Positions 15,901-24,092 are shown, counted from the stretch's first letter. The stretch is 64,000 nucleotides of DNA from Candidatus Gottesmanbacteria bacterium (GCA_963701185.1 OY969569.1:667548-731547); one strand, 5' to 3'. Notes: generated by a model from the letters alone, not told the origin. Made by a program: numbers and translations.

Positions 15901-18900
15901 ACCTACAGGCTCAACCGGAGCGACCGGAGGCGCAGGAGCATCCGGACCTACGGGAATACGGGAGCGACAGGAAGTATAGGAAGTTCCGGACCGACCGGGA
16001 ATACCGGTGCCACCGGAGCTGCAGGACCAACAGGACGTACCGGTGCCACCGGAGCCAATGGTCCCACAGGGAGTACCGGAGCTACGGGTGCTGCCGGAGC
16101 TTCAGGGCCAACCGGGAGTACGGGAGCTACGGGAGGCGCAGGTGCATCCGGACCTACCGGGAGTACGGGAGCCACGGGAGGAATTGGTGCATCCGGGCCT
16201 ACCGGCTCAACAGGAGCGACCGGTGGAGCCGGAGCCTCAGGACCCACGGGAAGTACCGGAGCCACGGGAAGTATAGGAAGTTCCGGACCTACAGGATCTA
16301 CCGGAGCGACCGGAGGCGCAGGTGCATCCGGACCTACCGGGAGTACGGGAGCCACGGGAGGAATTGGTGCAAGCGGACCTACAGGATCTACCGGAGCGAC
16401 GGGAGGCGCAGGTGCATCCGGACCTACCGGGAGTACGGGAGCGACAGGAAGTATAGGAAGTTCGGGTCCCACGGGATCAACCGGAGCGACCGGTGGAGCC
16501 GGAGCATCCGGACCTACAGGCTCAACGGGAGCGACAGGAAGTATAGGAAGTTCGGGTCCCACGGGATCTACTGGAGCGACCGGAGGCGCAGGAGCATCCG
16601 GACCTACAGGATCTACCGGAGCCACGGGAAGTATAGGAAGTTCCGGACCTACAGGATCTACCGGAGCGACCGGTGGAGTCGGAGCCTCAGGACCCACGGG
16701 AAGTACCGGAGCCACGGGAAGTATAGGAAGTTCGGGTCCCACGGGATCTACTGGAGCAACCGGAGGTGCAGGAGCCAGCGGACCCACGGGAAGTACCGGA
16801 GCTACGGGTGCTGCCGGAGCTTCCGGGCCAACCGGGAGTACGGGAGCGACTGGAGGCGCAGGAGCTTCAGGTCCAACCGGGAGTACGGGAGCCACCGGAA
16901 GTATAGGAAGTTCGGGTCCCACGGGAAGTACTGGAGCGACGGGAGCTGCCGGAGCCTCAGGGCCAACCGGGAGTACGGGAGCCACCGGAAGTATAGGAAG
17001 TTCGGGTCCCACGGGAAGTACTGGAGCGACGGGAGCTGCCGGAGCCTCAGGGCCCACGGGATCAACAGGAGCGACCGGAAATATAGGAAGTTCGGGTCCC
17101 ACGGGAAGTACTGGAGCGACGGGAGCTGCCGGAGCCTCAGGACCGACAGGCTCAACAGGAGCAACCGGAGGTGCAGGAGCCAGCGGACCCACGGGAAGTA
17201 CCGGAGCAACGGGTGCTGCAGGACCAACAGGACGTACCGGTGCCACAGGAGCTAATGGTCCTACAGGCTCAACCGGAGTCACTGGTACTGCAGGTCCGAC
17301 AGGATCAACGGGAGCGACGGGAGGAGCCGGAGCTAGCGGACCCACGGGAAGTACCGGAGCGACGGGAGGAGCCGGAGCTTCAGGGCCGACCGGATCAACC
17401 GGTGCCACGGGAGGCGCTGGTGCAAGCGGACCCACGGGGAGTACGGGTGCAACCGGAGGCGCCGGACCAACCGGTTCTACAGGGGCAACCGGAGGAGCTG
17501 GCGCAAGTGGACCGACAGGAAGTACCGGAGCGACGGGAGGCGCAGGTGCATCCGGACCTACTGGTTCAACGGGAGCGACGGGAGGCGCAGGTGCATCCGG
17601 ACCTACCGGGAGTACGGGAGCCACGGGAGGAGCCGGAGCTAGCGGACCCACGGGAAGTACCGGAGCGACGGGTGGAGTTGGAGCCTCAGGACCGACGGGA
17701 TCAACGGGGTCAACCGGAGCTGCAGGCCCAACAGGACGTACCGGTGCCACCGGAGCCAATGGCCCAACCGGCTCAACCGGTGCCACCGGAGGTGCCGGAG
17801 CCAGTGGACCGACAGGGAGTACCGGAGCCACCGGAGGTGCAGGGCCGACAGGATCAACCGGAGCGACCGGAGGAGCCGGTGCAAGTGGACCGACGGGAAG
17901 TACCGGAGCTACAGGCGACGCAGGGGCTTCCGGACCAACCGGGAGTACCGGTGCAACGGGAGCTGCAGGACCAACCGGGAGTACCGGTGCCACCGGAGCC
18001 AATGGGCCAACCGGGTCAACCGGTGCCACCGGAGGCGCAGGAGCCAGTGGACCCACAGGATCAACCGGTGCCACGGGAGCTGTTGGTGCATCCGGGCCAA
18101 CCGGGTCAACCGGTGCCACCGGAGGTGCCGGAGCATCCGGACCCACGGGGTCAACCGGAGCAACCGGTATTGCAGGACCGACTGGAGCCACGGGAGGCGC
18201 AGGAGCTAGTGGACCCACAGGCTCAACCGGTGCCACGGGCGGAGCCGGAGCTAGTGGGCCAACCGGGAGTACCGGTGCCACCGGAGCTGCAGGACCAACA
18301 GGACGTACCGGTGCCACCGGAGCCAATGGACCCACAGGATCTACGGGAGCCACAGGAGGAGCCGGAGCTTCAGGGCCGACGGGTAGTACCGGAGCCACCG
18401 GAGGTGCAGGGCCGACAGGATCAACGGGAGCAACCGGAGGAGCCGGTGTAAGTGGACCGACGGGAAGTACCGGAGCGACCGGAGGAGCCGGAGCCAGTGG
18501 ACCGACAGGGAGTACGGGCGCCACGGGAGGAGTTGGTGTTTCCGGACCCACGGGAGCAACCGGAGGAGCCGGAGCCAATGGACCAACCGGAAGTACGGGT
18601 GCAACCGGAGCCACGGGAGGAGCCGGACCCACGGGGTCAACAGGTTCAACCGGCGCCACGGGAGCAGCAGGACCCACGGGGCGCACGGGGGCAACAGGAG
18701 CTAACGGGCCAACCGGCAGTACCGGTGCAACCGGCGCCACGGGTGTTGCTGGACCCACCGGATCTACCGGCGCCACGGGTGTTGCCGGACCCACGGGCGG
18801 CACAGGACAAATGGGTGCCAACGGAGAAAATTTATTCACCCAAACCGACAACCTCATCTACCCCTACCCTGTCGTTGACCGCTCCATAGCACTGGGAAGC

Positions 18901-22097: not shown

Positions 22098-24092
22098 ATG
22101 AAGCCTGCTCGGCTGTTTGGTGTTTTTTTTGGCGTCCTGTGTACTCTCCTGCTGGCATTCGTCTATACACAACGGAGTTATCTGCGCTTTCTCATCCCCG
22201 CACCGGCATTTGCCGCACCCAGTCCCGGCACCGCAAAGTTCGCCGGCAGTTATGCCACGTTTTCAGGGACACTGCGCGGGACGCAGTTTATCGATAATGA
22301 TAACAACGCGTACCTTCTGGACCCCAACGCCACCGGCAATTCTCTCCTCGTGGCCGGCTCCGTCGGCATTGGTACCACTGCCCCGGCGAGAAAACTTGAT
22401 ATTGTCCAATCATCTGATACGTATGCTGGTGGATTAGGCATTGCCAACTCCGCTATCACCAAAAGACTAACCTTATGGGTTGATACCAACAATGTCTCCC
22501 GAATAGAAGGCGGCGGTTTAGGAGATTCTATCGTCGCTATCAACGGCACCAGTACCGGTAACGTCGGCATCGGCACCACCGCTCCAGCCCAACCATTACA
22601 TGTTTTTGGATATAAAGGAGTTAGGTTGGAATCTGACGCTGCAGGCCAATATGGATTTATGAATAGCACCGGAAATTTACACCTCACGCAAAATGCATAT
22701 TATGATGGAGCCTCATGGAAATCAATCGCAGCAAGTCCAACTCTTGCTGCTGGCTTTCAAACCAACGTTGGTGGAACGGAAGCATTTAGGATATTCGCTG
22801 ATACGAGTATATCCGCAGCAAACGAGGTTCTAACTTTAGATCCCCTCATGGTGGTTAAAACGAACGGCAATGTCGGTATCGGCACCGCAGCCCCAGACAC
22901 ACCTTTACATGTTTTTAGCCCTACAGTAAATGGTGGAATTGCCACTTTTGATAATGCAGCAACTTCTACTCAATCATATTATAATTTTAAGGTGGCAGGC
23001 ACTCTTAGAGGTTCTTTGCGAATAGATAATGGCGGTAATTTTATTATAGATCCAACTGGTACGGGTGCAACGTATCTTAGTTGGGATAGTGGTAGTAACG
23101 GTGTAGTATTTGGCAATGGTTCTGGCGGCGCCGTCGGCTCTGTATCAGGTGGAGGCAATCTTTCGATGAATGGAACAGGTTACTTCGGAGGCAACGTCGG
23201 TATTGGAACAACAAATCCTACCTACACGTTAATGGTAACTGGCTCCACAGCAGGCAATATTACCTCAGGAAGCATAAACGTATTAAATACTGCATCAACG
23301 GGAAATTCTGGAGCCATTGTCAATATCGGGTCGAATTCTAGCTCGGGATATATCGGCGCCTTCAACTCAACTCACACATCAATTCCCCTTGCTGACCGCT
23401 TCGTCATAGCTCCAAATAGTATCGCGGCAGGTCTGACTATATACGCTTCTAATGCCGGTCAGGACATTCGATTCTTTTCCGGTTCAACCACTGAAACTAT
23501 GCGTATAGATAGTTCTGGGAAAGTCGGCATCGGCACCACCAGCCCCGGATATCTCCTTGACGTTAATGGTTCCATTAATATCGCCAACAGTGGATTATTA
23601 CGTATCGGCGGAAACACGGTCACTAATTCAGCAAATAACCGAATCAGTATGTATTATGTTGGTTGCGGCGCCTCTTGGAACAGTACGTGTGATAGTGGTT
23701 CTAGTGGATGGCCCGATTACGCTGACGCACTTCTTTCCGACAATAGACTCAAAACCATCACTAAACCTCTCGATAATGTTATGGATAAAATCATGCAGCT
23801 AAAACCCACGTACTACACATGGAACCAAAACTATGACGCTTTGGGTCTCCCTAATCACGGTCAGGAAATCGGCTTCATCGCCCAAGACGTTCAGCAACTC
23901 TTCCCTGAAATGGTCTACAATGCGGGCCCCAATGATCCCTATCTTCACCTAGATTACCAAAAAATGACCGCAGTCTTGGCTCAGGGCATCAAAGAACAGC
24001 AAGGGGAGATTGATGAATTGAAAAAAATGGTGGAAGATCAGGGGCAAATAATTCGTCAGCTGCAAACGGAAATCCGGCAGTTAAAAGAATAG
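22098..24092 (+). CDS. tail-fibre-like surface protein with C-terminal peptidase S74 / intramolecular chaperone auto-processing domain
   Basis: N-terminal signal/TM. Five repeats of the (N/S/K)VGIGTT(A/N/S)P....L.V motif. C-terminal LLSDNRLKTITKPLDNVMDKIMQLKPTYYTWN...IGFIAQDVQQLFPEMV matches the endosialidase-chaperone (S74) signature. Ends in a coiled-coil segment. Confidence 0.7.
   Translation: MKPARLFGVFFGVLCTLLLAFVYTQRSYLRFLIPAPAFAAPSPGTAKFAGSYATFSGTLRGTQFIDNDNNAYLLDPNATGNSLLVAGSVGIGTTAPARKLDIVQSSDTYAGGLGIANSAITKRLTLWVDTNNVSRIEGGGLGDSIVAINGTSTGNVGIGTTAPAQPLHVFGYKGVRLESDAAGQYGFMNSTGNLHLTQNAYYDGASWKSIAASPTLAAGFQTNVGGTEAFRIFADTSISAANEVLTLDPLMVVKTNGNVGIGTAAPDTPLHVFSPTVNGGIATFDNAATSTQSYYNFKVAGTLRGSLRIDNGGNFIIDPTGTGATYLSWDSGSNGVVFGNGSGGAVGSVSGGGNLSMNGTGYFGGNVGIGTTNPTYTLMVTGSTAGNITSGSINVLNTASTGNSGAIVNIGSNSSSGYIGAFNSTHTSIPLADRFVIAPNSIAAGLTIYASNAGQDIRFFSGSTTETMRIDSSGKVGIGTTSPGYLLDVNGSINIANSGLLRIGGNTVTNSANNRISMYYVGCGASWNSTCDSGSSGWPDYADALLSDNRLKTITKPLDNVMDKIMQLKPTYYTWNQNYDALGLPNHGQEIGFIAQDVQQLFPEMVYNAGPNDPYLHLDYQKMTAVLAQGIKEQQGEIDELKKMVEDQGQIIRQLQTEIRQLKE

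Follow-up and report, generated by a model that had tools for sequence, protein, structure and literature searches.

Two adjacent fibre genes of a Candidatus Gottesmanbacteria chromosome probably encode separate surface fibres built from phage-tail-fibre-like modules

The mosaic adhesive trimer (MAT) fibres of Bdellovibrio are cellular, surface-displayed adhesins with swappable tips (Caulton et al. 2024, PMC10769870). Thirteen of the 21 MAT fibres end in an S74 domain with the motif SDxxxK, and the exchange of its serine for alanine abolishes self-cleavage (PMC10769870). The phage T5 protein pb1 is cut between Thr1263 and Ser1264, N-terminally of the catalytic serine, which departs with the chaperone, and the cleavage position in the K1F endosialidase is reported to be the same (PMC4690869). 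A chaperone of a different type is found in the pre-neck appendage protein gp12 of Bacillus phage phi29, the mature form of which ends at residue 691 (PMC6542822). Here, we compare these systems with two neighbouring open reading frames (ORFs) in a 64,000-nucleotide stretch of a Candidatus Gottesmanbacteria bacterium genome (GCA_963701185.1, OY969569.1:667548-731547), called the window below: a giant ORF (gene 1, 9817-22047) and an S74 ORF (gene 2, 22098-24092), both located, with all of their features, on the (+) strand. The region probably encodes two separate homotrimeric cell-surface fibres that draw on one common stock of modules resembling those of phage tail fibres.

Gene 2, an S74 fibre protein

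Gene 2 encodes a protein of 664 aa, which ends in a Peptidase_S74 intramolecular chaperone domain with a C-terminal coiled coil (23736-24089). The PF13884 profile matched aa 547-607 over its whole length (profile positions 1-58 of 58) with E 2.3e-15 and 57.1 bits at a cut-off of 22, which agrees with an earlier note on this DNA that had placed an S74 chaperone at this end. The Ser-Lys dyad is intact: SDNRLK begins at aa 547 (23736 in the window), with Ser547 encoded at 23736-23738 and Lys552 at 23751-23753, and the conservation of S547, D548 and K552 reaches at least 90% in an alignment of 82 homologues. In the AlphaFold monomer model, only aa 550-664 were predicted with confidence (pLDDT, predicted local distance difference test, >90), including a long helix at 620-663, while aa 1-64 were modelled without confidence. 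The best structural match of the S74 domain found by Foldseek was the intramolecular chaperone auto-processing (ICA) domain of the myelin regulatory factor MyRF (7dc3, E 3.5e-5, template modelling score 0.60-0.63), followed by weaker matches to the endosialidase chaperone (3GW6, 3GUD).

The protein starts with a basic and hydrophobic segment (MKPARLFGVFFGVLCTLLLAFVY...AFA, 22098-22214), in which MKPAR is followed by a hydrophobic stretch of 18 residues. The segment, recognised in the translation and conserved in the relative P0071, can be read as a signal peptide or a signal anchor. It is followed by one copy of a motif that we call YYLDP (22263-22361, aa 56-88) and by five VGIGT(T/A)xPxxxL repeats with spacers (22362-23561), predicted to form a trimeric beta-helical shaft. 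All five repeats, already listed in the earlier note, were located, at aa 89, 156, 259, 367 and 476. A phmmer search of the PDB with gene 2 retrieved, over the stretch of the repeats, the Bdellovibrio fibres Bd2133, Bd1334 and Bd3182 (8ond with E 1.7e-4, plus 8oml and 8ojn), and Foldseek matched gene 2 to Bd2133, Bd3182, Bd1334 and Bd2439 (8ond, 8onc, 8oml, 8onf). The PDB sequence search with gene 2 also matched the distal fibre chaperone of phage S16, and in PHROGs both the shaft and the C-terminus were assigned to tail-fibre families. The family is very large, with more than 2,200 proteins at E 0.001 among the scored candidates, and its CPR (Candidate Phyla Radiation) members are named 'tail fiber domain-containing protein' by NCBI. 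The gene 2 protein matched no family in NCBIfam. When the first 154 aa were used as a query, the sole match was a 209-aa Bradyrhizobium VGIGT fragment, which is uninformative on the anchor and the motif.

Gene 2 resembles the S74 subgroup of MAT fibres, e.g., Bd3182, in its chromosomal non-phage location, its N-terminal export signal, its exchangeable tip, its C-terminal S74 domain with SDxxxK and its long shaft with repeated V-G-x-G-x-x-x-P-x-x-x-L loops, for which sequence or fold matches to 8ond, 8oml, 8ojn and 8onc were obtained. Unlike the Bdellovibrio fibres, it belongs to a monoderm-like CPR host and not to a Gram-negative predator, is shorter at 664 aa, carries the YYLDP motif after the anchor and shares only 20-25% identity with them. 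The likeness covers the shaft, the signal and the S74 domain, and the ~130-aa domain, rich in beta structure and conserved, that follows the signal peptide of MAT fibres stands outside the comparison. With the chaperones of the K1F endosialidase and T5 pb1 (MEROPS S74; 3GW6, 4UW8), gene 2 shares a Ser-Lys dyad spaced five residues apart, a C-terminal position after a trimeric shaft and a central coiled coil; unlike them, it is not on a virion and has no preceding sialidase or known receptor-binding domain. A function of gene 2 as a depolymerase or endosialidase was rejected, as no catalytic domain was detected. Judged by its sequence, gene 2 has the defining S74 features that were tested, resembles MAT fibres and belongs to an already known kind of protein.

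By the same likeness, the chaperone would first drive the trimerisation of the shaft and afterwards cut itself off, leaving a fibre composed of the N-terminal anchor or signal, the YYLDP motif, the five-repeat shaft and a small Cys-containing tip. The earlier note had placed the excision at the Ser-Asp bond, with a product ending in ...ADALLS. The analogy with T5 pb1 and K1F moves it by one residue: because both cleave before the catalytic serine (PMC4690869), the cut in gene 2 is expected between Leu546 and Ser547 (...ADALL/SDNRLK) and the mature protein is expected to end in ...YADALL. In the mechanism we propose, Ser547, activated by Lys552, would attack the Leu546-Ser547 bond.

The giant protein encoded by gene 1

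The giant ORF comprises 4076 aa when counted from the first TTG, but translation may in fact begin at the Met at aa 39. Its product is a predicted membrane-anchored fibre in which two HTH_17/MerR-type helix-turn-helix (HTH) domains, a Pro-rich linker, a transmembrane (TM) segment, a long series of G-x-T triplets and a non-collagen C-terminus of 1,072 aa follow one another. The HTH domains (9949-10311) were each recognised by Pfam in two stretches (HTH_17 E 1.2e-18, MerR E 2.1e-18) and are predicted to be cytoplasmic. The single hydrophobic TM segment (10600-10686), read from the translation, is near-identical in the relative P0170. The collagen-like stalk occupies 10714-18831 (aa 300-3005) in the translation, with Pfam Collagen matches at both ends. 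The same layout of HTH domains, linker and TM segment, or a version of it with two phage-integrase SAM-like domains where the HTH pair would be, was found among the relatives P0168, P0190, P0218, P0155, P0170, P0173, P0177, P0180, P0181 and P0217, and a gene at 4233-10448 of locus L049 is among those sharing this N-terminal DNA-binding and TM layout.

According to homologue coverage, the C-terminus falls into six blocks, which include a stalk segment with the YYLDP motif (19108-19209), a domain that we call domB, a linker, a variable block and a block starting at aa 3605. DomB (19249-19671, aa 3145-3285; GTxDPxYTIxGxKYAT...YRLTAPRFD) is the signature domain of this fibre family and its most conserved C-terminal block, with 34 invariant columns and a pLDDT of ~90. 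It is conserved in 76 retrieved homologues, and 183 stretches of it were found in GTDB representatives, of which those named at phylum level or below are nearly all Microgenomates/Patescibacteria. Other searches with the giant protein gave little: sub-threshold matches to collagen adhesins for the C-terminus in NCBIfam, weak collagen-like matches in PHROGs and, in a phmmer search of the C-terminus against the PDB, only a spurious match to histidinol dehydrogenase.

Behind the linker lies a CBM4/16/22-like beta-sandwich (CBM, carbohydrate-binding module; 20149-20616, aa ~3445-3600), identified by a beta-jelly-roll fold match. This block is variable, being present in only 7-10 relatives, and it is a candidate receptor-binding tip. 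Directly after it comes a candidate chaperone resembling Peptidase_G2, i.e., domain D4 of phi29 gp12 (20629-21156), which starts at Asp3605 with the motif D-I-A-E. The D and E of this D-x-x-E motif (alignment positions D16 and E19) are invariant in 15 aligned relatives. The profile built from this alignment (A3) matched the phi29 gp12 autochaperone (3gqh) with E 1.4e-4 and the D4 chaperone of the tailspike Dpo31 (28nb) with E 8.8e-5, and both chains start at the aligned Asp; PF11962 (Peptidase_G2) was matched by five of the 15 relatives, with a best E of 2.9e-8. The protein closes with a C-terminal module (21169-22044) that ends in a K1-lyase_C beta-sandwich (~21826-22041).

The giant protein shares with the phi29 gp12 autochaperone (PF11962, 3GQH) a D-x-x-E motif, from Asp3605, and then a GvvS...G block. 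It differs in that the alignment is significant over the first ~60 residues only, the domain is internal with 290 aa after it, and the window sequence lies below the Pfam threshold. In our model, the protein would be anchored by its one TM helix with the two HTH domains on the cytoplasmic side, and would project the collagen-like stalk of ~2,700 residues, followed by the YYLDP motif, domB, the linker and the CBM-like domain. The phi29-gp12-type domain would then cleave before Asp3605, and the CBM-like domain would therefore become the distal tip, which is the place where phage spikes and MAT fibres carry their variable receptor-binding part.

The long stalk of G-x-y triplets with a globular distal domain is reminiscent of Scl1/SclA, Lcl and the collagen-like tail fibres of enterohaemorrhagic Escherichia coli (EHEC) prophages (PMC3368898). 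In contrast to these proteins, the giant protein has ~2,700 triplet residues, a chaperone-like domain at the far end, and a TM anchor with a predicted cytoplasmic HTH part instead of an LPXTG motif or attachment to a virion. Known modules are combined in the giant protein (collagen-like stalk, CBM, G2-like chaperone and K1-lyase_C), but their arrangement, with a DNA-binding pair and a TM anchor at the N-terminus, an exceptionally long stalk of ~2,700 aa and an internal chaperone candidate, was not found described; likewise, no description was found of the ToxR-like topology in which a DNA-binding domain, a TM segment and an extracellular fibre follow one another. In the limited library searched, no paper linked CPR bacteria to collagen-like or S74 fibres.

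In MyRF, a single polypeptide carries a DNA-binding domain, a TM helix and a domain that trimerises and cleaves itself. Their order is DNA-binding domain, ICA and TM helix: the S74-type ICA is internal, it cleaves and is followed by the TM segment, and the cleavage frees a DNA-binding trimer. The order in the giant protein is different, namely DNA-binding domain, TM segment, fibre and chaperone, so that the chaperone would stand on the other side of the membrane. The MyRF-like combination of a DNA-binding domain, a TM segment and an S74-type domain does occur among relatives of the giant protein, e.g., P0170.

Several observations concern the integrity and the database record of this gene family. 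At 15484-15952 (aa ~1890-2045), about 150 aa are non-collagenous in the annotated frame, and the +1 frame consists of perfect G-x-T triplets. The repeats thus contain two compensating frame changes ~470 bp apart, without a stop codon, which could be a pair of assembly indels or a real lesion. Contigs of related genomes often start or stop within the collagen repeats (L001-L002 and many domB loci). Because these repeats break assemblies, the lengths and N-termini of giant-family genes are under-recorded in databases. Two close homologues of the C-terminus, P0135 (aa 29-83) and P0162 (aa 42-114), start with a fragment of an intein splicing domain (PF14890), which suggests an intein in or near the repeat region of some relatives. 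Although domB is specific to Microgenomates, many of its loci come from third-party annotation (TPA) metagenome-assembled genomes (MAGs) labelled 'uncultured Gammaproteobacteria/Pseudomonadales', and two bear archaeal labels, all of which are probably mistaken.

One fibre or two, and cellular or phage origin

The earlier note had described a homologous module in the two proteins, based on about 14 identical positions of 30. The two segments exist, and the shared element is real, but it is only ~34 aa long, and the identity between aa 3098-3127 of the giant protein (19108-19197) and aa 56-85 of gene 2 (22263-22352) is 11 of 30. Pairwise BLASTP of the two proteins gave a marginal E of 0.002 over 67 columns. 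A match beyond chance was obtained with a hidden Markov model (HMM) of the motif, with 34 positions, built from 37 segments of other proteins and none from the window: gene 2 (aa 56-88) scored 34.5 bits and the giant protein 35.0 bits, with 7.7 bits as the best of 1000 shuffles, the training segments having been selected by a regular expression for the motif. The form F-x-D-x-x-N-x-x-Y-Y-L-D-P is present in ~35 of 88 homologues of the giant C-terminus, and the YYLDP motif precedes domB in 42 giant-family homologues. In several relatives, it is flanked by VGIGT repeats like those of the gene 2 shaft, and because the motif and the repeats are paired in this way, genes 1 and 2 appear to draw on one pool of shaft elements. 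As far as the sequences tell, the element is common in Microgenomates fibre proteins and makes no specific link between the two genes.

The giant gene keeps its place on the chromosome. The order leuS-comEA, giant gene, pilins and TPR protein is found in L002, L004, L005 and L006, the pilins are its neighbours also in L070, and the position between leuS-comEA and the pilins is conserved in several genera. In the window, the three type IV pilin-like genes, which have the Pfam N_methyl motif and are conserved neighbours of the giant gene, lie at 24465-26224 on the (-) strand. What lies in the slot that separates the giant gene from the pilins is variable: L002 has an fn3-like ORF of 397 aa and an ORF of 132 aa there, L004 has ORFs of 214 and 221 aa, and L005 and L006 have next to nothing. 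All four of these syntenic relatives lack gene 2 in this slot. Comparison of the protein sequences indicates that, among relatives, S74 and G2 domains have been exchanged from one gene type to the other. In P0071, the gene 2 N-terminus (47% identity) is fused to a G2-like domain; P0170 has the giant-type TM segment, the collagen stalk, the post-collagen junction (73% identity) and the C-terminal module together with an internal S74 domain.

The earlier note had taken the two genes as parts of one trimeric fibre system. They would then form consecutive sections of a single fibre, as gp34-37 do in phage T4, with the motif as the joint and the S74 protein as the matured distal tip. Several points weigh against two separate fibres and fit this alternative. 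The genes lie on the same strand, 50 bp apart and with no terminator-like site between them (a promoter and terminator scan around the junction gave nothing above shuffle expectation), and they share a motif that is rare in the S74 family, where it was found in five of 120 among the proteins listed. In the closest relative, L003, two (-) ORFs of 204 and 199 aa are followed downstream of the giant gene by a homologue of the first 107 residues of gene 2 (48% identity) and then by the contig end. A downstream S74 ORF on the same strand was found in four of the 82 giant-family loci. One of these is L070, whose neighbourhood combines the giant gene, the pilins and, beyond them, a small anchor-YYLDP-VGIGT-S74 fibre, and another is L049, with a second giant gene of the 2xHTH-TM type that carries an internal S74 domain. 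Because this adjacency recurs, genes 1 and 2 may be functional partners. A frequency of only four in 82, however, is near what chance would give with a few S74 genes per 1-Mb genome, and gene 2 is missing from the four syntenic relatives. Moreover, the gene 2 product should undergo membrane insertion or export by itself, since it has its own hydrophobic anchor or signal, and the giant protein has its own chaperone candidate and C-terminal module. The claim of a single system is therefore not upheld: the fibre genes cluster with the pilins in an appendage island, their pairing is not conserved, and a heteromeric two-gene fibre is unlikely.

Doubts of another kind concern cleavage in the giant protein. 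Its segment in the window matches no Pfam family at E up to 1, PF11962 included, and the G2 assignment is based on profile matches at E ~1e-4 and on transitive homology. The pLDDT in the AlphaFold monomer is ~30 for this region and poor for both shafts. Because of the missing PF11962 match and the low model confidence, we call the domain only a G2-like chaperone candidate. Nor is it terminal: with ~290 residues after it, cleavage would shed ~470 residues, unlike in phi29, and the domain may work without cleavage. These points open the possibility that the chaperone-like domains, especially the G2-like one, are trimerisation modules that do not cleave, with the K1-lyase_C module as the real tip; in P0170 and in the second giant-type gene of L049, an internal S74 domain is likewise succeeded by the same C-terminal module. 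The catalytic residues, however, are conserved in both families (S/D/K in at least 90% of 82 and D/E in all 15), cleavage by an internal S74-type domain is known from MyRF, and we consider the absence of cleavage rather improbable. An origin from phage, i.e., a prophage remnant, a tailocin or a contractile-injection-system fibre gene acquired from a phage of CPR bacteria instead of a bona fide cellular appendage, is suggested by the fact that S74, G2, K1-lyase_C and collagen-like tail fibres are all typical of phage receptor-binding proteins and that gene 2 sits in the variable slot, to which L003 adds its two (-) ORFs. Yet none of the integrase, terminase, portal, capsid, sheath, tube or baseplate families was found in the 43 ORFs scanned with Pfam across the 64 kb, in which housekeeping genes surround the fibre genes throughout. 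At 0.47, gene 2 has the GC content of the genome background, phage matches to it have at most 45% coverage and less than 30% identity, domB was found on no viral contig of IMG/VR, and the giant gene keeps its conserved chromosomal position between leuS-comEA and the pilins in several genera. The contractile-injection-system variant was rejected for want of any sheath, tube or baseplate gene. We regard a phage origin as very improbable; the earlier note had likewise judged the module chromosomal and not a prophage, which is borne out by the lack of integrase, terminase and capsid families and by the synteny of the locus in other Gottesmanbacteria chromosomes.

Genomic surroundings and meaning for the host

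The closest relatives of the giant protein come from Candidatus Gottesmanbacteria MAGs and chromosomes, which identifies the host as a CPR bacterium of the Microgenomates group. The identity in domB is 92% for L003 and 84% for L004, which lies on a chromosome of 1.09 Mb. The window has a GC content of ~48%, with one stretch at 60-66% that corresponds to the repeat region of the giant ORF. Upstream of this ORF, argG, argH, a metallo-beta-lactamase ORF, the ComEC 'Competence' ORF, comEA and leuS are located on the (-) strand. ComEC is represented by two separate (-) ORFs, with the 'Competence' domain at 4801-5577 and the metallo-beta-lactamase at 3856-4695. The giant gene thus stands between leuS/comEA/comEC (3856-8818) and the three pilin-like genes with the TPR protein (24465-29743), as also in L002, L004, L005, L006 and L070, which suggests a surface-appendage and competence island. 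Beyond the pilins, Pfam identified the TPR protein, methyltransferases and glycosyltransferases and, farther away, Rho, RadA, an M23/LysM peptidase and S1.

Gene 2 is followed by an ORF of 122 aa (24095-24463, (+) strand) without a Pfam or PHROG match, a possible accessory protein that has a TM segment and a linker rich in Pro and Thr, and whose C-terminus is Cys-rich (...CPxTFADPxC...). An ORF of this type adjoins an S74 gene both here and in the distant L070, where a small ORF at 14908-15327, directly upstream of the S74 fibre gene, resembles it when the translations are compared by eye. A homologue (28% identity, E 7e-7) lies among the pilin genes of L004 (~15336-15743, (-) strand).

Elsewhere in the window, at 41504-42578, a DegT/DnrJ/EryC1 aminotransferase is broken up into an overlapping pair of ORFs, which cover positions 2-157 and 164-359 of the Pfam profile. 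The break suggests a frameshift, be it in a pseudogene or through an indel error, and bears on the trust that can be placed in the frame change within the collagen repeats. At 57565-60044, a dockerin ORF, also containing DUF4434, adjoins a cohesin ORF, an arrangement that resembles a cohesin-dockerin pair, here in the genome of a CPR bacterium.

By analogy with the described systems, both fibres that we propose would likely serve the adhesion to a partner cell or its glycans. A further role for the giant protein and its Microgenomates relatives is conceivable, albeit improbable: they may act as contact sensors besides adhesins, in which a glycan-tipped collagen fibre of ~0.7-0.8 micrometres is coupled by the TM helix to cytoplasmic DNA-binding domains, either two MerR/HTH_17 or two integrase SAM-like ones, in a ToxR-like or MyRF-like topology. 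If this were true, contact with a partner cell would be signalled onward to the nucleoid or would act on gene expression, and the S74 and G2 domains would be swapped maturation cassettes of a system located in a conserved appendage island with pilins and competence genes.

The S74 domain by itself is unsurprising, since cellular S74 fibres have been published (PMC10769870) and CPR homologues are already named in databases. The locus offers two concrete candidates for adhesion, a small MAT-like fibre and a fibre with a very long collagen stalk and an exchangeable CBM-like tip, and the maturation of gene 2 is assayable with a single Ser-to-Ala mutant. To our knowledge, it is largely unknown how CPR/Patescibacteria episymbionts recognise and hold their partner cells. 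The interchange of S74 and phi29-type chaperone domains in the domB family, which is widespread in Microgenomates, extends the 'mosaic fibre' principle, known from phages and Bdellovibrio, to a third lifestyle.

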